DNA of 64,000 nt, from the NCBI GenBank assembly GCA_965204665.1, contig OZ242002.1, forward strand, positions 1,285,865 through 1,349,864. Reading direction: 5' to 3'. The position numbers were made by a program, and so were the translations under genes. The DNA comes from Thermodesulfobacteriota bacterium. GTDB lineage: Bacteria; Desulfobacterota_D; UBA1144; Nemesobacterales; Nemesobacteraceae. The first letter of the stretch is position 1, and every line of letters starts with the position of its first letter. Of the stretch, positions 2,755-33,400 are shown piece after piece. The notes below the pieces were generated by a model, which saw only the letters and a list, made by a program, of their open reading frames with translations, was not told the DNA's origin and ran no database searches.

Positions 2755-5658
2755 TCAGGAAAGATCTCTTCTTATGGCCAAGTTCTTCCTCGACATCATT
2801 CCGTTTTTGTCCTTGGCCACTATCGTGAAAAGATTCATTTCCTCTTCAAGCGAAAGCGGAAAAGAGATGAAGACGTTGGTTTTTCGGGGAGTAAGAAGTC
2901 TTATCTTATCGTCTTTTCTCCAGACAGAAATACTTTCTATACGGTCCGAGTCCATGACCGACCCTTCTATCACCACCAGGGATTCATTGGTATGTAGAGG
3001 AAATTCAGATAATTGTATGGAGGGCGGGTTTTCAAATGCTTCTGCGAGAGCCGTTATCTGTGTTTCCCGCGTTTCATCAGGAAGTACTCCACGGGTTTCG
3101 ATCTCAGCCGTTTTTTCATCTATCCAGCCCGAGATGCCGTTTTTCCCCTCAACCCGCACCCAGTTTCCTGATTTTCCCAGAACCCTGAGCCTGGAATCTG
3201 CCTGCGCGACGGCTATCGTCCCCGCTTCGACGAAGGCGCCGCCGAAGACGGGAACGGAATCAGGAAGCACAGCGCTTCTTTCCGGATCAAAAGAGACGAA
3301 TTCGATTTTGTCCGTGTACGCGGGCAGAGTTATTCTGTGCGTTCTTATTTCACGCAGGTCCTCGTCCATTACCGAAAACTCAAACTCCGTCTCACCGCCT
3401 TGCCCGTTTTGCCTGAAGCGAAACGGAGCTGCGCGAATTTCTCCGGGACGAAAATTTTCGAACTCAAACCTTCCTTTTTCCAGAAACACATCTTCGCCTG
3501 AGAGATTCTTGAGAGATACGACGGTTTTTCCGGACACTCCTTCGCCTGTGTTTTTTAACTTCAAGTTCAGTACAACGGTTTCCCCTATTTCAGTCCGACC
3601 GTTCGAGTTGCCCTCGCTTCCGAATCTTCCGTCGTCTACCGTTTCATAGTGATGGGAGTATCCGGGGTATTCGGCCGCTGCGGTTGTTATCAGAAGAGTT
3701 TTTTCCGTAAACGATTCCTTTTCCGAACCCGACAGAATGAACTTGAGTTTATCTTCGCGGGTCGTCATCCATGCAGGTACGAATACGCTCACTTTGGAAA
3801 TTGCGCTCTGTCCCGGAAACAGTTTTCCGAAAAGAAACTCCTTATCGGCGTAGATACTGTTTTCGCAGTCCGTGACCGCACTTAACCTGTATATGGAGTT
3901 TTCGCCGATGTTGGTCACCTTCACCTCAAGAACATTCTCTTCTCCTGCCTGCAGTGCCGTCTCGGAAGGAATTAAAGTTATCTCCACTTGAGGGTCTTCC
4001 GTCCTTCCACCGGACCAATCAGTGTCTGTTTTCTGAATCTGTTCTTGTATTTCTTCGAGTTGGGTTTCCGCCATATCCTCCGCCACGCCGCGCATCTGTT
4101 CCCGCGTTTCAGTTAGAAGCAGGTTTTTTGAAAATTTCACATAGAAATCATTCTTGATTTTCTCGAGTTTTTCTTCTTTTGTCAGAGATTGATCTGATAT
4201 GATCTCCTCTTGATCTTCAGTCTGCGGCAGCAGGGATTCATCAATATATTTGATAGTAAAAGCGGGGTCTTCAAGTTCTCCTACAGCCTCTCTTTTCTCA
4301 GGCAAGGGGTTATATACGACCTTTTCTTCAGTTACGATGGACCCCTGCAGAAGTATGTCGGGAGTTACTCCGACATCCTGTATCGAAACATCTCCGGGAA
4401 GATAGTACTTGGCTACCGTAAGTTTCAGCGCTGAACCGTCTTCCATCTCAAAGATCTTTTGAACGGACCCTTTTCCATACGATCTGTTTCCCAAGACCCA
4501 CGCCCTTCCGTTGTTCTTGAGGGCACCTGCGGTTATTTCCGATGCGCTTGCGCTTCCTTGGTCAACCAGCACGACAAGATTGCCGTCGTACAGAGTGTTT
4601 TCCGTCGCTTTATAGGGAATTGAATCTTTTTTAGACCTTGTCGACACTATAATTCCGGAGGAAAGAAAGAAATCAGCTACATCTTTTGCCTGGTTGAGAA
4701 GTCCTCCGGGGTTTCCTCTCAGGTCAAGGATTATCCCTCTGATCTCATAAGGACGTTTTGTTATTTCATTTTTGAAATGGGATGCGGTGTTTTTCTGGAA
4801 GTTCTTTATCTTTAGATAGACGATATTGTTTTCAAGATCGTGGGATTCAACGCTTTCTATCTCTATGATATCTCTTATTATCGAGAATTTCAGGGGTTTA
4901 CTGGCCGTCTTCCTGGAAACCAGTATATTTACTCGGGTTCCTTTTTCTCCTCTGAGTTTTCCGACTGCCTCAAGAAGCGGCATGTTTACGGTGGACTCGT
5001 TTTCTATCTGCACGATTCGGTCTTTTGTTTTCAACCCGGATCTGTAAGCGGGAGTTCCTTCTATCGGGGATATTACAGTCAACTGCCCGTCTCTTATTCC
5101 CACGACTATTCCGAGTCCTCCGAAACTTCCGCGGGTATCTACAAGAAATTCCTTGTATATATCCGGTGGAATTATCGCGGAGTGAGGGTCCAGCACCTTG
5201 AGCATGCTGTCCGACATCAGATACTCTATGTCTTCCTTCGCATCTTCTTCAGCTTGGGTATTGGAAAGAACAAACGACATGACCTGGTCTATCATGCCCG
5301 CGACATCCCTCACGGAAGAAAGCCTCGCCATCTTAAAGATTTCGGTTTCGGAGTTTACTTGAACTGTAAAAGTATCTTCCCGGTTTTCCGGAAATTCCAC
5401 CATCACGTCATCCAGTTTTATTTCCAGGCTCGAGACGGCTGTCTCAAGTATTTTTCGATAATCAATCTTGCTTTCATCAACATAAAAGTTGTTTGCTCGA
5501 TTGAGAATATTTTCGGTTAACCGGGCGCTTCGGCTGTCGTGGCGGCTGTCAAAACTTATCTGGTCCGCTATTAGAAAAAAGGACGGGATGCCGACTATCC
5601 CAATCAAAAAGGGGATTATGTATCCGTTTCTTAGGAAATTTGAAAATTTTCGAGACAA
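2755..5658 (-). CDS. large S41-family C-terminal processing peptidase with a PDZ domain and a ~500-aa C-terminal beta-rich extension
   Basis: PDZ segment (GIVVGIRDGQLTVISPIEGTPAYRSG) and S41 core (LDLRGNPGG ... VVLVDQGSASASEITAGAL ... GKGSVQ). The reading frame starts with TTG at 5658. Confidence 0.8.
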   Translation of the reverse strand: MSRKFSNFLRNGYIIPFLIGIVGIPSFFLIADQISFDSRHDSRSARLTENILNRANNFYVDESKIDYRKILETAVSSLEIKLDDVMVEFPENREDTFTVQVNSETEIFKMARLSSVRDVAGMIDQVMSFVLSNTQAEEDAKEDIEYLMSDSMLKVLDPHSAIIPPDIYKEFLVDTRGSFGGLGIVVGIRDGQLTVISPIEGTPAYRSGLKTKDRIVQIENESTVNMPLLEAVGKLRGEKGTRVNILVSRKTASKPLKFSIIRDIIEIESVESHDLENNIVYLKIKNFQKNTASHFKNEITKRPYEIRGIILDLRGNPGGLLNQAKDVADFFLSSGIIVSTRSKKDSIPYKATENTLYDGNLVVLVDQGSASASEITAGALKNNGRAWVLGNRSYGKGSVQKIFEMEDGSALKLTVAKYYLPGDVSIQDVGVTPDILLQGSIVTEEKVVYNPLPEKREAVGELEDPAFTIKYIDESLLPQTEDQEEIISDQSLTKEEKLEKIKNDFYVKFSKNLLLTETREQMRGVAEDMAETQLEEIQEQIQKTDTDWSGGRTEDPQVEITLIPSETALQAGEENVLEVKVTNIGENSIYRLSAVTDCENSIYADKEFLFGKLFPGQSAISKVSVFVPAWMTTREDKLKFILSGSEKESFTEKTLLITTAAAEYPGYSHHYETVDDGRFGSEGNSNGRTEIGETVVLNLKLKNTGEGVSGKTVVSLKNLSGEDVFLEKGRFEFENFRPGEIRAAPFRFRQNGQGGETEFEFSVMDEDLREIRTHRITLPAYTDKIEFVSFDPERSAVLPDSVPVFGGAFVEAGTIAVAQADSRLRVLGKSGNWVRVEGKNGISGWIDEKTAEIETRGVLPDETRETQITALAEAFENPPSIQLSEFPLHTNESLVVIEGSVMDSDRIESISVWRKDDKIRLLTPRKTNVFISFPLSLEEEMNLFTIVAKDKNGMMSRKNLAIRRDLS

Positions 5659-5768
5659 TCTAACTCACACCCCGGGCACCTTTATTATCAGATATACTGC
5701 GATTATATCAAGCCGGAACTGCCAGAAAATGTAAAGGAACCTCTCTTAAGAAATGAAAAAATGTTGCT

Positions 5769-5778
5769 GGGGGGGGGG
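5769..5778. repeat. G10 homopolymer tract (C10 on the minus strand)
   Basis: Counted directly: ctgg+gggggggg. Lies between the AmiS-like gene terminator and the S41 peptidase promoter. Confidence 0.9.
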
Positions 5779-5785
5779 AGAATAG

Positions 5786-5822
5786 AAAAAAACAACAATG
5801 ACAGGATGAGAAACATCCTGTC
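5786..5822 (-). terminator. rho-independent terminator downstream of the AmiS/UreI-like gene
   Basis: Minus strand has GACAGGATG-ttctc-CATCCTGTC followed by attgttgTTTTTTT. Confidence 0.6.
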
Positions 5823-5851
5823 ATTGTCGCTGAATCTTTTAGACTAACACC

Positions 5852-6385
5852 TCAGCCGGGTACTCCTCCGAGCGGATTCCATTTATCGGTGAGAAGAAGC
5901 ATTCCGGGAAGCAGAAGGGTCAGTACCGACTCTATAATGAACAGATACGCTATCGGCTTGCCGAGGTCCTTGCCCTGGGCAAACGCAAAGAAGCAGAGAA
6001 GCACCAGCAGAGCCCAAGCCCAGCAGAAATAAGCAAATTCCGCAAGCCCGAGACCGTTGAAATGCAACCCGTACCATATGAATACCACAGTCGCGAAAAG
6101 ACAGTACACTCCGAGCCCCTTTGCATCATGACCATGCACAAACACCGCGTACACGAGCAGATATATAAGAGCAAACACACTTACAAGCGCCGTCGCCGCC
6201 GTCAAACCTAGAGTATGCAACTTCCAGGCGGCGATCGCTATCAGCACGCCTACGCCCAGATTGAGCACACCGACTTCCTTTGCGCCGGTTTTCCCCAGAA
6301 GGGTCATCCCATTCGCAAAAAAGACAAAACCAACCAACAACAGTACATAACCTAATAAAGCTTCTACTGGAACCATCGAAACCAT
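5852..6385 (-). CDS. AmiS/UreI-family membrane channel (putative urea or amide transporter)
   Basis: 177 aa with 6 TM; N-terminal pattern LLGYVLLLVGFVFFANG...K..K..GVLNLGVGVLIAI resembles AmiS/UreI. Confidence 0.65.
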   Translation of the reverse strand: MVSMVPVEALLGYVLLLVGFVFFANGMTLLGKTGAKEVGVLNLGVGVLIAIAAWKLHTLGLTAATALVSVFALIYLLVYAVFVHGHDAKGLGVYCLFATVVFIWYGLHFNGLGLAEFAYFCWAWALLVLLCFFAFAQGKDLGKPIAYLFIIESVLTLLLPGMLLLTDKWNPLGGVPG

Positions 6386-7038
6386 ACCTCCTTATGTTTG
6401 ATAAAAGTTCCTGCGCCCCCATGCTCAGGGGTTCTATACACCTTTTATCACAGTTCGGACATAAATGTCAAGCAAAAAATTGCAAATGATTAATTATTGT
6501 AAATATATAACTTACTAAGTTCTGATCTTCTGAAAGTATCAAGTCGGGTTCGATTTTGTCTCTCAAATGACTATTATCGGACACCGAGCAGACTTCTGCT
6601 CAAGTTTGAATTCGTACAGCGACGCATACCGGGCGATGTCATCAGACACCGCTTGCGCACCCGTAACGACAAACTGTTCTCTACGGTTAACGTCAGTAAC
6701 ATCCGACATCCTTTTCGCCTTGCCGCCCTCCGCGCATATTCCGGCAGTTTACTGATAAGGCTTTACAGCATTTGTATTGCTGAATTATTCAGCACAGAAC
6801 ACTCCGCTCCCCCGAAACTCATACGACCCATTTTCAATCTCACATTAAGTTGTCGTAGATTTCCGGTTTTCAGGAAAAATTCGTCCTGCAGTGTCAGAAA
6901 AATCCTGACTTGATACTCGGTATTTCACCGAAATTTTTTGCCGACACGTTTGCTTGCCGGGCCGGCAATTCTTTTACCGCAAGGTTTGAAATTGCGGCGA
7001 ACATAAATACGGAACTTCTTAACTTTCTGTTTCTTCAG

Positions 7039-7047
7039 TGTTATAAT
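7039..7047 (+). promoter_or_regulatory. extended -10 element TGTTATAAT upstream of the 7086 gene
   Basis: Exact match to TGnTATAAT about 38 nt upstream of the ATG. An RBS GGAGGG lies at 7070-7075. Confidence 0.5.
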
Positions 7048-7085
7048 TTCACTTGAGAACCGTATTCCGGAGGGTATGATAAAAA

Positions 7086-7466
7086 ATGGCGAAAAAAAAA
7101 TCAGCCGGCGGGATACCCGCCGATATATGGAGGAAACAACCAGAGAACGGAGCAAGGAGCGCCGGTATAGCGGGCACGGCACTAGGTATTCAGACCGATG
7201 TGCTTCCTAAATACAAAACCTTCGATGTTATCACACTGAGGATAAGCAGGGCGGATTTCGAGTTTCTCCACAATCTCGAGAGAGACATAATGAAAAATCG
7301 TTCCAGCGAGAATAAAAAGGAGAGAATAACCAAGAACACTGTTGTGAGGGCCATGCTTTCCTGCTTTAGAAACATAAAATTCGACAAAGATGAAATTCCT
7401 AATGAAGCTGAACTTAGGGCGAGGATAATGAAAGGTTTGAAGGAGCACCCTTCCTGGTTGTTTTGA
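7086..7466 (+). CDS. hypothetical 126-aa basic protein, possible small DNA-binding or regulatory protein
   Basis: Good promoter and RBS. Lys/Arg-rich. Convergent with the PLD-helicase gene. No recognisable family. Confidence 0.45.
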   Translation: MAKKKSAGGIPADIWRKQPENGARSAGIAGTALGIQTDVLPKYKTFDVITLRISRADFEFLHNLERDIMKNRSSENKKERITKNTVVRAMLSCFRNIKFDKDEIPNEAELRARIMKGLKEHPSWLF

Positions 7467-7555
7467 GGAGTCACTTTATCGTATTTTGCAACAGTCGACT
7501 TGATGTAGGGAGGTCTTAAATCACGGTGCTTGTCAATCAAGCGGGGACAACATCT

Positions 7556-10500
7556 TCAACCCGCGGCTGTCTTTGCGGCCTGATAAAGCCACCCCGGCAT
7601 TGGACGTTTTAGTTCCCACAGTATTTTCATGGGATGTTCAGACTCGTGGCTTCGGTATCGGGCGTGGCCGAGGCAGTGGTATGGAAGGGTCCCGCCTCCG
7701 CTACCCTTTTTGCGTTCACGCACAAACAAGATGACATTCGTATTACCTTGTTCAACGTACCGGAGACCGGTAGGCGTATCAGGTGATGTGGTATTCTGCG
7801 ATTCCCAGTGAAACAGTGTCGGCGATATTGGATAGTCGTTGTAGCGTGTAGAGGGCGAGAAATCTTGGTCAGATTTCTCCAGCGTGATGAACAAGAGATC
7901 TGTTTGCGTTTTCTTATTCCATAGAACACCACCTTGCGGAAGGGCAATCGCGTTGCGTCTGTCGGTGTGTCTGTATGCCGCCATGATCTCACCGAGTGTA
8001 TAAGTTGCATGGCTCGCCAAGGGAATATCACCTTTCGGGTCAATCGGTTCGGGAACTGTGCGGATGCGGTCGGCGAGAATTTCCAGTAGGTCGAGAATCT
8101 CGCGGTGCAACTCTGATGACTCGCAGATTTTTTCTAATGTCTGGTCGGCTTCTTCAATTGATTGCCCACGGCTACCAAGAATGGCAAACAACATGAGTCC
8201 TAGTCGATGTTTGCGGCCCTGCAGTCTCGAAATCCTGTCAGAACGACTCGTTTCCAAGATGTCGCGCCATGCTTCAATTCTCTCGTTGTCGTCTATGTGG
8301 ACCAGTCTACCGAAAGTTTTGAGAACAGGGTTGTCGGTTGACAGACCGGTGTTTAGATCAAAACCCGCTCGCTTGCGGAGTTCAGTAAAACAGTGCCCTG
8401 AACTAGGTCGCGCGTAGATATCTTCTAATGCTGCGTCGGCGTCACGTATGAAAGCACGGAGTCCCGCACTTGGTCCGAGGGCGCGTAAATCGTCGATGAG
8501 ACGCGCACGGGAGTTATGAACGGCTTTTTTAAGATTTCGCAGTACTGTGTTTTTGGAAATGCGGTCCAGTTTGAAAGCGCATCCCGGGGGTAGAAGCGGG
8601 AAGTCGTTTTCTAAGGAGCGCAGTACCTGATGACGGGTGCCTCCCAGTAGAACTCGATAACGTACATCGTAGCGATACTCACGGCGAACTTGATCAACGA
8701 AGTCCAGGACGGTAAGAACCTGCTTTCCTTCTGCCCAGCGAAGTCCTCTTCCCAGTTGCTGGAGAAACACCGTAGCGCTTTCGGTTGGTCGAAGCATCAG
8801 CACGGTGTCGACTTCGGGGATGTCCACTCCCTCGTTGAACAGGTCCACGGTGAAGATGGCGCGGAGTTTGCCCTGTCGCAGGTCCTCAAGCGCATTGCGA
8901 CGGTCATCTTGTGGAGTCTTTGAATCAAGCGCTCGTGCCGGGTAGCCGAAGCGGATGAACTCGCTTGCCATAAAGTGAGCATGGTGGACACCCGCGCAGA
9001 ACCCTAGGGCGCGCATTCGGTGCGGGTCCGTCACCCATTCCTCTATAGCTCGGCAGACCCGCATAGATCGAACATGGTCGCCGGTAAGCAGGTTGTCAAG
9101 TTCGTTTGTTATATATCTCCCGCGCTCAAAACCGACCGTAGAAAGGTCTGTCGCGCTATTCACCCCAAAATAGTGAAACGGACAGAGCAGTCCTTGGTCA
9201 AGTGCGTCCCAAAGCCGAGACTCTGATGCGATGCGGCCGTCGAACCACTCGAGAACCGACTGGCCGTCGGAGCGTTCGGGCGTAGCTGTGAGTCCAAGCA
9301 AAACTTCCGGTTTCAAACGAGACAGCAGTCGTTTGTAACTCTTAGCCGCGGCATGGTGGAATTCGTCCACGATAACCACGGCGAATCCATCCGGGTCAAT
9401 ATCATCAATACATTTGCTGAGGGATTGTATCGAGGCGAAAACATGGCGACCTACTTGTGGATGCTCACCCCCGACCAACAGCTCACCGAATTCCGGTTTT
9501 CCCAGAACCAGTTTAAAAACCCTACGACTCTGACGAAGAATTTCCTCTCTGTGCGCGACAAAGAGCAGAGAATCCAAACCTTGATTGTGCAGTCTCTTGA
9601 AGTCGAATGCCGCAATCCAAGTCTTGCCGGTGCCTGTGGCTGCCACCACGAGATTGCGGCGGTGTCCACGCATCCGTTCCGCTTCAAGTGCTTCAAGTGT
9701 CGTAGATTGATGCGGTTTGGGCGTAACATCCACCAGTAAATGCCGTGTGTTCACCTCATTTGGTGAATCACCTGGTCGCTGTCCTGAGAGTGCCTGATCT
9801 ACTCGGTCAGCATCACGTTCGGGTTCATAATCCTCAAATTCGGGCTCATGCCAATACTGTTCGAAGGTTGTCTTAAATCTTTCGATTACTTCGGGGTTCT
9901 CGACTGCGCTCACGCGCATGTTCCATTCAAGGCCCTCAACCTGTGCTGTACGGGTAAGGTTAGACGAACCGATATAGGCGGTGTGCATTCCACTGCGACG
10001 GTGGAACATCCATGCCTTGGCATGAAGGCGAGTCCGAGCGACTTCGAACGAAATCTTAACTTGCGCGCCGAGATTGATAAGCGCGTCTAGCGCGCGACGC
10101 TCTGTCGACCCTGTATAGACGCTTGTGATCACGCGTATCTGCGTTCCCTCCTGCACACGTTTCTCAAGCTCAGATTGAAATAGACGCAACCCTGAGTAGC
10201 GTACAAACGCGCACAGCAGGTCAATCCGGTCGGCACTTGGTATTTCCCGCTCAATCTCGCTTGCGATCTGAACATCGCGCCGTCCGTTGACGAGAAGCCC
10301 GGTTCGGCGAAGAGGTAGCGCCGGACGAGCGGTAGGCGTGGGATTGTCGTCTGGAGTAAGGCATTTGACAACTTCAGCGATGATGCGGACGGTATCTGTG
10401 ACTTGGTTGTCAGTCGTCACGCCATGTTTGAAAAGCACCTCTACGAGCCGGTTAACAAGGGCGATTTGTTCGGTGGATTGAGTATTTTCATTGCCTGGTA

Positions 10501-30027: not shown

Positions 30028-30597
30028 GTGTGCATATCCGCCGTGGAAAGTATACGGAATGCAGGTTATTAAAACACAATAAGAGTCATATTCAAACTGA
30101 ACCTCTGCTTGCGCCGGATCCGACTATGGTTTATCTCTGCCGATATTTCTGTTGATTTTTCGGTTTTGACTGTCCCTGAACGAGAATTGTTCTGTAATCG
30201 ACCTCGACTTGCGTTTCGTACCGCGAACAATAAGGTTTTGTTTCAGCCGTTCTTGATCCTCCGTAGATTGATTTTCCGCGCAGACCGTAGTATGAGAGGC
30301 TGGAGACGAGCGGTTGTCCAGAGATGAAAATGCCGGTGTATCCGATGTGGAACTTAAGAGCATTGCTCTGTTTGACCGCCTGGATGACGGCACACCCGAG
30401 ACCCGATTCTCGGATACATGGTCCGGAGGCGGCGGGAAATTGAGAATTGTTTGTTGCCGAAAGCGTCATCACAACAGTTGACGGACGACTGCTTGACAGC
30501 GAAGTTATATTGTACTGACGCTACATGCAGTAGAGGGAAGCGTTCCGATTTACCTTCTCTCTACTGCGCAACAAAATTCCATCGGGATAATCGGCTG

Positions 30598-31254
30598 CTA
30601 AGCAAAGTCGCGGGTAAGTCTGCAGGGCTTCCAATTTTCCGTCCAGTGTTCGTCACTTTGTACATGTCCGTCGCGAACACTCTTGCAGATATTGATCGGA
30701 AATTCCGATTCGGAAAAGCCCGACGCCACTCGCATTACAACGCCTTCCCGCTCGCCTCCGAGTACGGAAGGCTCAGCGTGAGCATGGTTCAAAAACGTCT
30801 GCGCTTCCTTGACCGATCTGAAGACTCCTCTGAACAGGACAGGAACTGTCGGGATTCCGTTCCGGTTCGCATAACTCTCCATATCGGCGAACGGGGCGAA
30901 TGCTCCGGTCTTGTTCCCAAGAGCGAAGGCGTAGAATGTTCGGTCCTCGGGAACCGGTCCGTACGCAATACTGTGCACACCATATATATCCTCTCCGTAG
31001 AGATAGATATCGAATCCGGTCACTTTCCAAGCATGGTGCTTTTTCACCATCGCCGTCCATTTCCCTTCAGATGGGGCGGACACGCTGCGTTCATAAACCC
31101 TGCCGTCATGCAGAAGAATGTTGCTGCCGTCTAATTTCTCGGTAACCACTACAGGTACACCCGCAAAATGAGACGGGTCGGGGTGGATTCTTTCATCCCG
31201 ACCAATAGCCGGAGAGTGTGGCCAATACGGCGTTCTGGGATATTTACGGTTCAA
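30598..31254 (-). CDS. Rnl-type RNA ligase family protein (nucleotidyltransferase with KxDG motif)
   Basis: Motif I TEKLDGSN (Lys40), motif IV-like EGVVMRV, and a lysine-containing motif V-like segment. 218 aa. Confidence 0.6.
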   Translation of the reverse strand: MNRKYPRTPYWPHSPAIGRDERIHPDPSHFAGVPVVVTEKLDGSNILLHDGRVYERSVSAPSEGKWTAMVKKHHAWKVTGFDIYLYGEDIYGVHSIAYGPVPEDRTFYAFALGNKTGAFAPFADMESYANRNGIPTVPVLFRGVFRSVKEAQTFLNHAHAEPSVLGGEREGVVMRVASGFSESEFPINICKSVRDGHVQSDEHWTENWKPCRLTRDFA

Positions 31255-31292
31255 ATCTGTTGTCCTCTGTATCCGCTCTAGCCCAAGTCATA

Positions 31293-31769
31293 TCATTTGC
31301 TTGCGTAGTGAGGACAAAGCTGGCTGATCTTCAAGCACAGACGTTTCATTAAAGAATCTTGTTGCCGCCAGTCGCTGTCCGTCGCGTTCAGCACAACCGC
31401 ATTCGCTTTCACTGCTACCGCAAGAAATTTCCGGTCGCTCGGGTCAAAGTTGTTTCGGGGCAACTCTTCAAAACTTCTCCGGTCATCCTCCGACGGAGTA
31501 ATGACAACTCTCCGTACGCGGCCATTCGGCAAGTGTTGGTTATCCCATAGATATTTGAAAAACATGTCACCTACTCCCGGTTTGCCGGAGAGAGACAGGT
31601 GATTTCTATATTCTTCGATGATCAACCCTCTTTCATCGACCGCTACAGTTTCTCTCTCGACCACTTCCTGCAATTTTTCCACGCAGCTCAGTTGACATTT
31701 AAAGTCAATATTTTCGTTGCCGCCGTTAGCCACGACGGCAACATTGGTATCAACGACAAATACATTCAT
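31293..31769 (-). CDS. PIN-domain nuclease
   Basis: FVVDTNV (Asp7), acidic residues around 38-40, and DRKFLAVAVKANAVVLNATDSDW (Asp112, Asp131/133). The start codon overlaps the stop of the upstream ATPase gene. Confidence 0.65.
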   Translation of the reverse strand: MNVFVVDTNVAVVANGGNENIDFKCQLSCVEKLQEVVERETVAVDERGLIIEEYRNHLSLSGKPGVGDMFFKYLWDNQHLPNGRVRRVVITPSEDDRRSFEELPRNNFDPSDRKFLAVAVKANAVVLNATDSDWRQQDSLMKRLCLKISQLCPHYASK

Positions 31770-33139
31770 CAGGAATGTCCTATTCTTCTTTTCAAAGAAG
31801 CTTTGGCTATAGCTGCTACTTCTCCCATTTCATCGCCGAAGAAATTCTTCGGCCAGTTCTCCACCTCTCCCCACTCATTGAGGGACAGATCGGAAATCTG
31901 CGCTTTATGTCCTCTAGTCGATACAAAATACAATTTGATGTTCTCCGGAGATTCCTTTCCCTCTGCCACCCTGCGCTGCAGGCGGCGCAACAGATATTCG
32001 CTATGGCTTTCCACGATGATTTGCACATCTCGGACATTGGAAACTTCCAACATCAGATCTGCAAGTCCGCTCTGCACTGCAGGATGGAGATGTATCTCGG
32101 GTTGTTCCATCAGCACAGTGGAGCCTTCCGGGACATAGTAAAGAAGTACCAACGCCGGCAGAACTTGCGATACGCCGAATCCAACATCGGTTAATGCGGT
32201 TTGCGGACTTGACCTGGATGTCTTCACGATTGCCCTGTACAGATTAGTTCCCTCGGAGATCTCCTCGATGCTGAATTCGTGAATAAGCCCCAGTTTTTTG
32301 AGCCAGTGTGCGATCACTTCCTGAAATGTTTTTTCTGGATAATATTTGATACGTTTCATTTCTTTATTGCGGGTAGCGGCGAGAATCGCTTCGACCGTGC
32401 GTTCACCTCGTTGTCCGACATCGCAGGGGCCGGAACCGGCCCAATTATATTGTCGTTGCGGATATTCCCGCAGAGGACCGAGGTAGTAGATGGAGTCCAT
32501 CAAATTTTCGTATTCCCACTCGAAAAGATTCAGAAACTCGGCGTTCTGATAGTGAAAACGCATGTCCGGAAACAGGTGTGTCTTGATCGGGCGGGGAATA
32601 GTGTTTGCTTGACCTTTGTTGCGTACGAATTCAAAATCGTCAGCAGTTGTCTTCAGGTCGAATTCATTATCCGACCTAGGCTTGGATTTCAACCGGAAAT
32701 CCGCCCCGGCGAACCTGTAGGCTAACTCATATGTCCAAGGAAGGTCGTTCTTCATGCCGACCTGGCATCGAGTCTGAAGAGAGTTACCTTTCAGTTGAGG
32801 GATGGAAGGTCCGGTCTGCATGTTCATCTCTCTCATCATGTCTGAGAGTTCGAGAGTATCGGATAACGACCAGTCAAGGAGCCAGCCGATCCGCTTTTTT
32901 TCATCATGAAGGTGCACTATATCACGAAAGGACCTGAGGCTTACTAAGTCGGAAGGACCTCCGAAATGGAGCACCAACCGGCGGTCTGTCGCATTCTTGG
33001 TCTGTTTAAGCAGGAGTAGAAATTGTAGAAGACTGCTCTTGCCCGCACTGTTTGTGCCGAAAAATCCGGTTACTTTTCCGAATCGTATGTCCGCTTCCTT
33101 CCACGCCTTGAAATTTGAGAGTTGCAGTTTGTTTATCAT
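31769..33139 (-). CDS. ABC-type AAA ATPase (AAA_15/AAA_21-like) with a C-terminal DUF3696-like motif
   Basis: Walker A GTNSAGKSS. Walker B / D-loop VLMEQPEIHLHP. H-loop ESHSE. C-terminal WPKNFFGDE. Confidence 0.7.
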   Translation of the reverse strand: MINKLQLSNFKAWKEADIRFGKVTGFFGTNSAGKSSLLQFLLLLKQTKNATDRRLVLHFGGPSDLVSLRSFRDIVHLHDEKKRIGWLLDWSLSDTLELSDMMREMNMQTGPSIPQLKGNSLQTRCQVGMKNDLPWTYELAYRFAGADFRLKSKPRSDNEFDLKTTADDFEFVRNKGQANTIPRPIKTHLFPDMRFHYQNAEFLNLFEWEYENLMDSIYYLGPLREYPQRQYNWAGSGPCDVGQRGERTVEAILAATRNKEMKRIKYYPEKTFQEVIAHWLKKLGLIHEFSIEEISEGTNLYRAIVKTSRSSPQTALTDVGFGVSQVLPALVLLYYVPEGSTVLMEQPEIHLHPAVQSGLADLMLEVSNVRDVQIIVESHSEYLLRRLQRRVAEGKESPENIKLYFVSTRGHKAQISDLSLNEWGEVENWPKNFFGDEMGEVAAIAKASLKRRIGHS

Positions 33140-33400
33140 TCGATTTTCCTGATCTATACTTCAAAAGTCCGGACAAGTTCAATGGAATTTTACACCTATA
33201 AGAGATGTATGTTCAAATCAGGAGCATCTCAAAATCTCTGTGACAACCGACAAGAAACCCGCAATCCTACTGGTTATGAATGAGCCGTGGAACAGAAAAC
33301 AAATATTCGTTATCGACTACTTGCTGTGCTATAATAAGATTTCCATGAAGTTTCGGCGTTAGATGAGTGCTGTTTGAGAAACAGGTCAGGAGGGTAGGAA

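Follow-up and report, generated by a model that had tools for sequence, protein, structure and literature searches.

A conserved RNA-ligase-like gene as the third member of HEC-03 defence operons in one large clade, with a possible role in resealing the damage that they cause

The window (the whole stretch of 64,000 nucleotides analysed, from contig OZ242002.1 of a Thermodesulfobacteriota bacterium) contains a compact cassette that encodes an ABC-type ATPase, a PIN-domain nuclease and a small RNA-ligase-like nucleotidyltransferase (Table 1). A preliminary description, made from the sequence alone, had placed three co-oriented genes between metG and a methylmalonyl-CoA epimerase gene, and the positions and translations of the open reading frames, all three on the minus strand, agree with it. 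The stop codon of the ATPase gene and the start codon of the PIN gene share one base, as had been noticed (the junction reads TGATG), the PIN-to-ligase distance of 38 nt is correct, a GAGGA Shine–Dalgarno sequence being placed 8 nt ahead of the TTG start codon, and the flanking genes encode MetG (PF09334, 3e-107) and a protein of the Glyoxalase_4 family that fits a methylmalonyl-CoA epimerase in size and kind. All of the motifs that had been quoted are present in the translations (GTNSAGKSS, VLMEQPEIHLHP, ESHS, WPKNFFGDE, KLDGSN and EGVVMRV).

Table 1. Features of the HEC-03–ligase cassette and its edge (positions in the window)
Feature	Position	Strand	Description
ABC-type ATPase	31769..33139	-	456 aa; AAA_15/AAA_21 core and DUF3696 tail; PADLOC HEC-03B
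PIN-domain nuclease	31293..31769	-	158 aa; PADLOC HEC-03A
PIN–ligase spacer	31255..31292	-	38 nt; GAGGA ribosome-binding site at 31263-31267
RNA-ligase-like nucleotidyltransferase	30598..31254	-	218 aa, TTG start; minimal, ATP-dependent, adenylyltransferase domain only
Sigma-70-like promoter match	33187..33216	-	About 50 nt upstream of the ATPase start
Non-coding gap, ligase to metG	30028..30597	.	570 bp; edge of the cassette, no part in its function

No minus-strand terminator was found inside the cluster in a terminator scan. The promoter match upstream of the ATPase gene scores 9/12, such sites being no commoner in the region than in shuffled sequence, and is a possible but weak candidate for the operon promoter; apart from the missing internal terminator, the promoter and terminator scan was uninformative. 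Rfam and tRNA scans returned no RNA genes in the whole window, so the cluster has no associated RNA gene. At the closest relative of the locus (L161), the flanks of which share 78–81% nucleotide identity with the window, the position of the 570-bp gap is occupied by genes for a full-length GajB helicase (PADLOC, 1.4e-276) and an AAA_15 ATPase. The gap itself gives a weak tblastx match to this AAA_15 gene (2e-5) and is probably a scar left by a deleted Gabija-type system.

The ATPase of the cassette matches the Pfam families AAA_15 (4.5e-25, 89.5 bits; cut-off 32.1) and AAA_21 (2.3e-19, 71 bits; cut-off 27) above their gathering thresholds, and its C-terminal tail, which had been likened to DUF3696, indeed matches that family (2.6e-8, 34.4 bits; cut-off 22). 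Walker A, Walker B/D-loop and H-loop are all present, and G28, N30, S31, G33, K34 and S35 are invariant in 21 homologues, as are E345-Q346-P347-E348, H350, H352 and E377-S378-H379-S380. For the second protein, conservation in 85 homologues bears out the proposed acidic active site of a PIN domain (Asp7, Asp112, Asp131/133): D7, D45, E53, D112, D131 and D133 are 92–100% conserved, and the conserved positions are alike in clades with and without a ligase. The protein stays below the Pfam thresholds (PIN_3, 0.003, 18.8 bits against a cut-off of 27; PIN, 16.8 bits against 23.6), has no DUF4411 match in Pfam and finds no significant sequence match in the PDB; NCBIfam holds no equivalog for the ATPase, the PIN protein or the ligase. 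We presume that the PIN protein is an RNA-cleaving effector under the control of the ATPase, which would serve as sensor and scaffold.

The preliminary description could match the three genes to no named defence system. This does not hold for the first two, because the ATPase–PIN pair is HEC-03 (Hma-embedded candidate 03; Payne et al. 2024 preprint; PADLOC-DB v2), and one of the grounds for refutation that the description had named, a match to a catalogued system, thereby applies in part. Residues 1–454 of the ATPase align with positions 1–454 of the 458 in PADLOC model HEC-03B (8.1e-194), its next best PADLOC matches being far weaker (NsnB, 3.6e-62; PDC-M55A, 6.4e-55), and residues 4–157 of the PIN protein align with positions 3–156 of the 159 in HEC-03A (1.2e-60). 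The ATPase is also 55% identical over 403 aa (E 4e-149) to that of the validated HEC-03 of Pseudomonas cichorii ATCC 10857. In Escherichia coli, the P. cichorii system blocks phages and requires both genes, the HEC-03 strains were cultured without IPTG because of apparent toxicity, and the HEC-03 PIN protein shows VapC-like structural similarity (Payne et al. 2024 preprint). For the ligase the statement stands: it matches no PADLOC model, neither the HEC-03 paper nor its supplement mentions a ligase (Payne et al. 2024 preprint), and the three-gene form is absent from both sources. The new part is thus the ligase as a third gene, for which a literature search, incomplete in coverage, found no earlier description.

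The assignment of the 218-aa protein to the RNA-ligase nucleotidyltransferases was also upheld, because the HMM scores that might have spoken for a non-ligase came out in the ligase's favour (PF09414, 1.6e-20, 74.4 bits, well above the cut-off of 27). The motif I lysine (KxDG) and motifs Ia, III, IIIa, IV and V are all present, and K40, D42, G43, R56, E88, F110, E170, G171, K191 and R194 are invariant in 62 sequences. A structural model built from the alignment of these 62 sequences has the adenylyltransferase fold and lies nearest to the nick-sealing ligases Rnl5 and Rnl2; it replaced a first model from 30 close homologues, which had a pLDDT of 62 and weak Foldseek matches. Neither the ligase sequence nor its profile has a significant sequence match among solved structures. 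The protein thus has a genuine ligase fold with an intact active site and, as judged from motifs and model, looks catalytically competent.

The ligase is small. About 175 of its residues align, to the adenylyltransferase domain alone, and the matched ligases are 316–376 aa in length compared with 218 aa for the HEC-03-linked protein. Rnl2, Rnl5, Rnl3 and Rnl1 (320–390 aa) use accessory domains for substrate binding or 5′-adenylylation, and none of these (the Rnl2 C-terminal, Rnl5 N-terminal OB-like, Rnl3 N-terminal/dimerisation and Rnl1 C-terminal domains) was found in the ligase. Because it has no family's accessory domain, we did not file it in any of Rnl1–Rnl6 and treat it as a minimal stand-alone clade. 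A putative zinc knuckle (C190, H197, H203 and C211, invariant in the HEC-03-linked ligases) was rejected as a family feature, because both cysteines vary in the phage clade.

The ATPase has at least 7,979 homologues at E ≤ 1e-20. To place the cassette in a wider context, we compared the neighbourhoods of related loci. A PIN match lies directly downstream of the ATPase gene in 77 of 80 related loci, which disposes of the concern that homologues of this ATPase might never occur with a PIN gene. An intact PIN gene and an intact ligase gene follow directly in 36 of 81 ATPase-selected loci. The ligase-bearing loci span at least seven phyla, with Pseudomonadota, Acidobacteriota, Gemmatimonadota, Binatia, Latescibacterota, Thermodesulfobacteriota and Spirochaetia represented, and group into what is essentially a single clade in a quick neighbour-joining tree of the ATPase. 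Order, orientation and short spacers are the same in the 47 loci with three intact genes (ATPase-to-PIN gap, median 0 nt; PIN–ligase spacer, median 38 nt, range 9–89), the flanks of which are otherwise unrelated. Because the gene order recurs in dozens of genomes, the arrangement is not due to chance, and the operon linkage of the ligase to the pair is conserved. Consistent with this, a reverse test on ligase-selected metagenome loci (ligase identity of at least 62%) returned 12 in which the genes upstream are intact (one truncated at a contig end), and most of the others keep PIN remnants. Pairwise identities of ATPase and ligase are correlated (r = 0.82), and mean pairwise identity is highest for the ligase (0.69; ATPase, 0.64; PIN protein, 0.58). 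These comparisons indicate that ATPase and ligase are inherited as a unit, and they support the ligase as a conserved partner of the pair as opposed to an accidental neighbour.

The HEC-03-linked ligases form a discrete group (62–80% identity) found beside the pair or its remnants in the sampled loci, the exceptions with neither being L098, L102 and L100 (ligase identity 55%). Decay of the cassette is asymmetric. An intact ligase gene stands beside a deleted, frameshifted or truncated PIN gene and/or a lost ATPase gene at L031, L054, L082/L083, L089 and L093, and probably also at L099, which lies on a short contig; within the core ligase clades, no locus with enough sequence to judge combines a broken ligase gene with intact ATPase and PIN genes. 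Three ligase-less loci with an intact PIN gene (L034, L042 and L079) branch beside ligase-bearing clades in the same quick neighbour-joining tree, which implies either several gains of the ligase or some losses with the PIN gene kept. If the ligase was sometimes lost while the PIN gene stayed, the argument for an antidote is weakened.

The related loci yielded no fourth conserved gene, and the ligase-less ones no substitute repair gene. End-healing enzymes (a kinase and/or phosphoesterase) are absent from the cluster in the window and not conserved in the 81 related loci. Neighbours at related loci are housekeeping genes or large unannotated genes that resemble Hma components, and the cassette is placed in a defence hotspot, in which unrelated systems stand side by side. 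The ATPase has 15 relatives on viral contigs, the best with 53% identity, below nearly all ligase-bearing loci, and relatives of the ligase on plasmids reach at most 36% identity; the trio is therefore not typically borne by phages or sequenced plasmids.

Beyond HEC-03, the ligase belongs to a family of minimal ligase-like proteins of about 215 aa (about 780 cluster representatives at E ≤ 1e-10); we found no biochemical characterisation of it in the literature. Members occur in the genomes of jumbo- and mega-phages and in phage-like arrays that adjoin genes which, as judged from sequence, resemble those of T4 Rnl1- and DRB0094-type ligases; phage Rnl ligases are considered to mend tRNAs that host effectors have cleaved (PMC7824862). 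Other members are fused to AAA_33 kinase, PTP-SAK phosphatase or 2H phosphoesterase domains, and the gene of a Deinococcus relative has a 4-nt overlap with that of an HD + AAA_33 kinase-like protein. The relatives in such overlaps or healing-domain fusions share 32–40% identity with the ligase in the window, and no PIN–ligase fusion occurs among the family representatives. These contexts point to a role in repair.

We propose that the cassette is a three-gene form of HEC-03 in which the ligase reseals the RNA breaks made by the PIN nuclease, a reading to which we give a probability of roughly 45%. In this model, the ATPase would sense infection and hold the nuclease in check until it activates or releases it, and the nuclease would then halt translation by cutting an RNA that is essential to the cell (probably tRNA or rRNA). 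The ligase, presumably co-transcribed with the pair, would reseal these breaks; it could thereby buffer self-damage from a leaky nuclease and, as an enzymatic antidote, set a threshold, and could let cells recover once the trigger is gone, which would make the arrest reversible. The RNA target, the mode of sensing and the resealing role are inferred, and the comparative evidence speaks for protection or repair as the role of the ligase. Somewhat more tentatively, the cassette may contain a built-in undo step, in which translation is arrested by an ATPase-gated PIN nuclease and reset by a co-transcribed ligase, which would act on host RNA and leave the toxin unbound; its phage-associated family is elsewhere linked to the reversal of host RNA cleavage.

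Whether such a ligase could act alone depends on the RNA ends that it meets. The single 5′-PO4/3′-OH tRNA nicks made by P2-OLD, an ATPase-coupled metal nuclease, are sealed directly by T4 Rnl1 and Rnl2 (PMC12445682), and the absence of a healing enzyme from the operon fits directly ligatable ends of this kind. By contrast, VapC-family PIN toxins are stated to leave 5′-OH ends (PMC6459853), and VapC expression activates the Rtc operon, the proposed ligands of which are tRNA fragments with a 2′,3′-cyclic phosphate (PMC7790460); a lone ATP-dependent ligase could not join such ends, which counts against resealing. The other main doubt comes by analogy from a Runella ligase-like protein, encoded in an open reading frame that overlaps that of HD-Pnk, which forms the enzyme–AMP intermediate and left the tested 3′-OH/5′-PO4 substrates unsealed (PMC6097658); its likeness to the Deinococcus relative is one of gene arrangement. 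The missing accessory domains would likewise count against sealing. Because two-gene HEC-03 works without it, the ligase is dispensable for defence, which could even be weakened if repair were constitutively active.

Three other roles deserve consideration. The ligase might be an independent RNA-repair or defence gene that rides with the cassette and mends RNA damage from the nucleases of phages or competitors or from other resident toxins, and not the cuts of the PIN nuclease. The intact ligases that outlast the decay of PIN or ATPase would suit such a gene, as would the occurrence of the family on its own in many unrelated contexts and the placement of the cassette among the juxtaposed systems of a hotspot. 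However, the tight operon (short spacer, same strand, no terminator), the discreteness of the linked ligase group, with its three exceptions, and the matching divergence of ATPase and ligase lead us to expect a functional unit and not a hitch-hiker, and we consider independence unlikely.

Less probable is a role as a co-effector that fixes the damage in place: the nuclease would make two cuts or remove a segment, after which the ligase would join the ends left over or circularise fragments, and the outcome would be a shortened, dead RNA that offers no ends to phage repair. Two-gene HEC-03 defends already, the conserved positions of the PIN protein do not differ with the presence of a ligase, orphan ligases are kept without a nuclease and the other contexts of the family are those of heal-and-seal repair; all of this argues against a co-effector, even though the ligase is more strongly constrained than the PIN protein and RloC has been described as excising the wobble nucleotide. 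There is also a precedent for the outcome, because P2-OLD removes the anticodon stem-loop and T4 ligases then yield an aberrant, shortened tRNA (PMC12445682).

We regard as quite improbable a regulatory adenylyltransferase that AMPylates the PIN protein or the ATPase, caps 5′-phosphate RNA with AMP or couples the system to the level of ATP, and so serves as antitoxin or switch. Such an enzyme has a model in type VII toxin–antitoxin systems, in which MntA, a nucleotidyltransferase, AMPylates the HepT RNase and so neutralises it. A bare domain without a substrate-binding accessory domain would suit this role, as would the similarly arranged Runella protein, which adenylylates itself and does not ligate standard substrates (PMC6097658), and VapC-type ends, which would be unligatable (PMC6459853). 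Against it, motifs Ia, III, IIIa, IV and V, which serve the nucleic-acid steps, are invariant in addition to the lysine, and relatives are fused to RNA end-healing domains. To our knowledge, no ligase-fold enzyme AMPylates another protein. Finally, that the genes are chance neighbours without joint function, for which one can say only that defence islands do juxtapose unrelated genes, is refuted by the 47 intact trios of like order, orientation and spacing between unrelated flanks in at least seven phyla.

Defence by RNA cleavage, as in PrrC, PARIS, OLD and VapC-like systems, is usually seen as one-way, in that the cell is sacrificed or recovers passively, and RNA ligases are usually cast as phage counter-weapons. 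That a large clade of a validated defence system, of wide phylogenetic range, has a ligase of its own makes the active reversal of abortive-infection-type immunity testable, and the comparison is ready-made because natural two-gene and three-gene versions exist. If resealing is what the ligase does, abortive infection would become a reversible, self-resetting arrest, and the widespread minimal ligase-like family would gain a biological role and a natural substrate. The ligase-bearing clade also makes it testable how cells limit self-damage from leaky nucleases. In practice, HEC-03 models in defence finders should gain the ligase as an accessory gene.

Several known systems share parts of this design. 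With PrrC or RloC and the T4 Pnk–Rnl1 response, the proposed model shares an ABC-ATPase-regulated RNase that damages tRNA and an ATP-dependent RNA ligase that reverses the damage. In PrrC and RloC, however, a nuclease other than a PIN protein is fused to the ATPase, whereas here the PIN protein is separate and DUF3696 forms the end of the ATPase; the best 25 PADLOC matches listed for the cluster include no PrrC or RloC model. T4 Pnk and Rnl1 are phage enzymes that work against the host and depend on the kinase–phosphatase, whereas the ligase here is host-encoded, lies in the operon of the nuclease and has no healing partner. DarTG and the type VII HepT–MntA system, in which a co-encoded enzyme reverses the damage of a toxin or neutralises it, have the toxin and enzymatic-antitoxin logic proposed here but no sequence or fold kinship with the cassette, the putative toxin of which would also be gated by an ABC ATPase.

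PARIS (AriA/AriB) and OLD/Gabija likewise combine an AAA_15/AAA_21 ABC ATPase with a metal-dependent nuclease. The cassette is nevertheless not a PARIS system, because its effector is a PIN protein and AriB is a Toprim (DUF4435) protein, and the matches of the ATPase to AriA (2e-28, over the C-terminal 100 residues) and GajA are partial and far weaker than that to HEC-03B. Cleavage of tRNA is the established outcome for P2-OLD (PMC12445682) and for PARIS; a system-encoded ligase is described neither for P2-OLD (PMC12445682) nor in the PARIS source consulted. RNA repair has been linked to immunity against ribotoxins (PMC4411300), and heal-and-seal cassettes (Pnkp1–Rnl–Hen1, the HD-Pnk and ligase pairs of Runella and Deinococcus, and 'Swiss Army Knife' fusions) share the covalent nucleotidyltransferase ligase; these cassettes have healing enzymes, as does RtcAB, and contain no nuclease, whereas the cassette here has a nuclease and no healing enzyme. 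HARP, a PIN-fold protein-only RNase P, is also statistically associated with an ATP-dependent RNA ligase, but that ligase is of a different, circularising type, and the association is a genome-level co-occurrence, proposed to serve tRNA biogenesis, in neither an operon nor a defence context (PMC12153264). The system to which the locus belongs is HEC-03, with full-length matches to both of its models and with ATPase and PIN genes that are adjacent, co-oriented and overlapping; it lies outside any Hma system and, whereas HEC-03 was defined and tested with two genes, has a conserved RNA ligase as the third gene of its operon.

The 456-aa ATPase matches the PADLOC-DB model HEC-03B over its whole length (8e-194), and the PIN-like protein matches HEC-03A (1.2e-60); the ligase-like protein matched no PADLOC-DB model. 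HEC-03, which Payne et al. list among their "Hma-embedded candidates", consists of an ABC ATPase and a VapC-like PIN protein. In the published assays of a two-gene system of Pseudomonas cichorii origin, neither gene was dispensable for phage defence, and strains expressing HEC-03 were cultured without IPTG owing to apparent toxicity (bioRxiv 10.1101/2024.01.29.577857). Over 403 residues, the window ATPase shares 55% identity with the P. cichorii ATPase. Given this identity to a tested protein and the PADLOC matches, the claim in the preliminary description that the cluster corresponds to no named system was wrong for the ATPase and PIN genes, a core that had been described before. A conserved trio that includes a ligase was absent from PADLOC, the HEC-03 paper and the literature searched (a set that excludes Burroughs and Aravind 2016), and a ligase is never mentioned in the HEC-03 paper or its supplement (bioRxiv 10.1101/2024.01.29.577857). 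What appears to be new here is the ligase as a conserved third gene of HEC-03; its function in that setting we infer throughout.

Features of the cassette and its surroundings in the window
Feature	Coordinates	Strand	Basis
ATPase, 456 aa	31769..33139	-	ORF
PIN-like protein, 158 aa	31293..31769	-	ORF
Ligase-like protein, 218 aa, TTG start	30598..31254	-	ORF
Non-coding gap, ligase to metG, 570 bp	30028..30597		tblastx
Transposase fragment, 139 aa	27988..28407	+	DDE_3
RTX repeat protein, 510 aa	26126..27658	-	RTX repeats

All three genes and every motif attributed to them from the sequence were recovered. The ATPase stop overlaps the PIN start by one base, as had been described (a TGATG junction), and the spacer between PIN and ligase is 38 nt. 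A GAGGA ribosome-binding site lies 8 nt ahead of the TTG start of the ligase. The public database holds a 183-aa gene call for this protein (representative P0121; 84% of the ORF), and homologues cover 98–100% of the 218-aa ORF. Because of this coverage and the GAGGA motif, the deposited start is probably too late, removing a conserved N-terminal KYPRTPYWP motif. A scan of the entire window for RNA families and tRNA genes found none.

The cluster is flanked, as described, by metG and a glyoxalase-fold epimerase-like gene. In the closest relative available (L161; ATPase 79% identical, flanks 78–81% identical in nucleotides), the trio likewise sits between the epimerase-like gene and metG, and this slot also contains a Gabija-type pair of a full-length GajB helicase (1.4e-276) and an AAA_15 ATPase (L161 10653–14758). 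The non-coding gap in the window gives a weak tblastx match (2e-5) to the AAA_15 ATPase gene of L161. From this match and the L161 pair, the gap is probably the scar of a Gabija-type system lost from the window, and the epimerase–metG interval seems to be a defence hotspot in this lineage. Just past metG, an ORF matching the C-terminal part only of DDE_3 (4e-10, profile positions 58–146 of 146) hints that mobile elements were once active close to the cassette. The 510-aa protein beyond it is a secreted repeat protein with no connection to the trio: it carries RTX calcium-binding nonapeptide repeats (5.5e-40) and, close to the N-terminus, a short collagen-like Gly-X-Y stretch.

Pfam bore out the domain assignments of the ATPase (AAA_15, AAA_21 and DUF3696) and the RNA-ligase call (PF09414, 74 bits against a cut-off of 27). 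Across 62 ligase sequences from two clades, the nucleotidyltransferase motifs K40-x-D-G, R56, E88, F110, E170-G171 and K191...R194 are invariant, and an AlphaFold model built from this alignment was confident (pLDDT 92.6, pTM 0.90). The protein is an adenylyltransferase domain alone; because it lacks the accessory domains that define Rnl1, Rnl2, Rnl3 and Rnl5, it belongs to a minimal stand-alone clade of the RNA-ligase superfamily, outside the numbered families.

We sampled 80 loci by their ATPase from species-representative genomes, locating PIN and ligase by tblastn. A PIN match followed the ATPase in 77 of the 80 (median gap 0 nt). With L161 added, an intact PIN was followed directly by an intact ligase in 36 of 81 loci, ORF calls being crude in GC-rich loci; the PIN–ligase gap had a median of 38 nt (range 9–89). 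Ligase-bearing loci were found in Alpha- and Gammaproteobacteria, Acidobacteriota, Gemmatimonadota, Binatia, Latescibacterota, Thermodesulfobacteriota and Spirochaetia, with flanking genes otherwise unrelated among loci. They form essentially one large clade in a quick neighbour-joining tree of ATPases, and the ligase was absent from every sampled locus whose ATPase is less than 50% identical to that of the window. In a reverse sample of 80 metagenome loci picked solely for a ligase relative, ligases of at least 62% identity lay behind PIN and ATPase or their remnants, except in L098 and L102, and full-length relatives at 34–55% identity never did. In the 47 loci where the whole trio is intact, mean pairwise identity was 0.69 for the ligase, 0.64 for the ATPase and 0.58 for PIN. 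This conservation of the ligase, and a divergence that tracks that of the ATPase (r = 0.82), indicate that the trio is inherited and transferred as a unit. Many of the loci L001–L052 and L081–L099 presumably come from sponge-associated or marine metagenome-assembled genomes, an assumption drawn from isolate and genus names (Candidatus Palauibacter, Entotheonella, Porisulfidus, and RHO, CAR and SB bins); this skew may reflect sampling close to the lineage of the window or real ecology.

Some loci showed other arrangements. Four ligase-less pairs (L038, L044, L045 and L051) sit between conserved genes of ~950–1300 aa, a setting that seems similar to the Hma-embedded one from which HEC-03 was first identified; such embedding was seen in none of the ligase-bearing loci. 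In L010, L011, L022 and L040 (about 4000–8000), from Vicinamibacterales genomes, ORFs of 840–1140 aa lie at the ATPase position or immediately upstream and group with the HEC-03 ATPase family; they may represent either an additional, larger defence gene of ATPase type or an artefact of ORF calling.

The PIN assignment held: Pfam PIN models matched below threshold only and the suggested DUF4411 gave no match, but the acidic residues D7, D45, E53, D112, D131 and D133 are 92–100% conserved among 85 homologues. No position among these homologues separates ligase-linked from ligase-less PINs. With the acidic residues kept in both forms, PIN looks active with and without a linked ligase, and the ligase is an add-on rather than a substitute for lost PIN activity.

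Decay, seen in several independent loci, was one-sided. The ligase is intact where PIN has been cleanly deleted (L031), where the ATPase is gone and PIN is a frameshifted remnant (L082/L083), where PIN is truncated or interrupted (L089, L093 and, probably, the short contig L099) and where an insertion disrupts the locus (L054). Among core-ligase-clade loci with enough sequence to judge, none paired an intact ATPase and PIN with a broken ligase; where the ligase is missing in these clades, PIN is broken too (L014, L021) or the contig stops short (L027, L028). Anecdotally, this asymmetry is what would be expected of a protective ligase. Three loci with an intact PIN and no ligase (L034, L042 and L079) branch beside ligase-bearing clades in the quick tree; PIN is followed by housekeeping genes in L042 and by no recognisable family in L034. 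Their placement indicates either repeated gain of the ligase or its occasional loss with PIN retained.

The wider ligase family is large (about 1400 cluster representatives at E <= 1e-3, 782 at E <= 1e-10). Relatives occur in jumbo- and mega-phage genomes, on contigs of 630–640 kb, and in phage-like arrays beside genes that, judged by sequence, appear to encode NAD-salvage enzymes and T4 Rnl1-/DRB0094-like ligases. Phage Rnl ligases have been read as repairing tRNAs cut by host effectors (Iyer et al., PMC7824862). Two plasmid-borne relatives, about 34% identical to the window ligase, overlap a downstream gene by 4 nt: in Deinococcus sp. QL22 (L177 3989–5880) it encodes an HD phosphoesterase plus AAA_33 kinase-like protein of the end-healing type, and in Rhodobacter capsulatus pRCB133 (L178 4001–5373) a 249-aa protein that has no Pfam match and is possibly an unrecognised partner. 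Other relatives are fused to kinase, PTP-SAK phosphatase and 2H phosphoesterase domains, the same pattern as in "Swiss Army Knife" repair proteins. The contexts in phages, in Deinococcus and in fusions are consistently those of nucleic-acid end-healing and sealing. Seven proteins of 465–1390 aa (P0427, P0429, P0438, P0451, P0460, P0464 and P0473) each have two RNA_ligase-matching stretches, which suggests tandem ligase domains; several also carry AAA_33 kinase, PTP-SAK phosphatase and 2H-SAK domains. In L108 (654–4074) and L109, a ligase relative (50% identity) heads a run of overlapping ORFs on one strand; the next two encode a 359-aa protein without a Pfam match and a 576-aa SMC_N/AAA_23 ATPase, making this a different ligase-plus-ATPase module.

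By analogy with PARIS, OLD and the published HEC-03 data, the ATPase would sense infection and free or activate PIN, which would cut an essential RNA and stop translation. The ligase would then reseal the PIN-made breaks, buffering leaky activity and allowing recovery. We tentatively favour resealing, at a probability of roughly 0.45, on the basis of the operon linkage, strong conservation and intact catalytic site of the ligase, the association of its relatives with repair, the one-sided decay and the apparent toxicity of two-gene HEC-03. Also in favour, where an ATPase-coupled metal nuclease introduces a single 5'-PO4/3'-OH nick into a tRNA, T4 ligases seal it directly (PMC12445682), and an operon without a healing enzyme fits directly ligatable ends. 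Resealing is weakened, however, by the 5'-OH ends stated for VapC-family PIN toxins (PMC6459853), and by the induction by VapC of the Rtc operon, for which tRNA fragments with 2',3'-cyclic phosphate ends are the proposed ligands (PMC7790460). It is further weakened by the missing accessory domain, by the fact that defence works without a ligase, and by a Runella ligase-like protein encoded with HD-Pnk that formed enzyme-AMP and sealed no tested substrate (PMC6097658). An independent repair gene co-mobilised with the pair is an unlikely account of the ligase; a co-effector that locks in the damage and a regulatory adenylyltransferase are somewhat less probable still. The published form of HEC-03 is an ATPase and a PIN protein; the window and one large clade add a ligase as the third gene.
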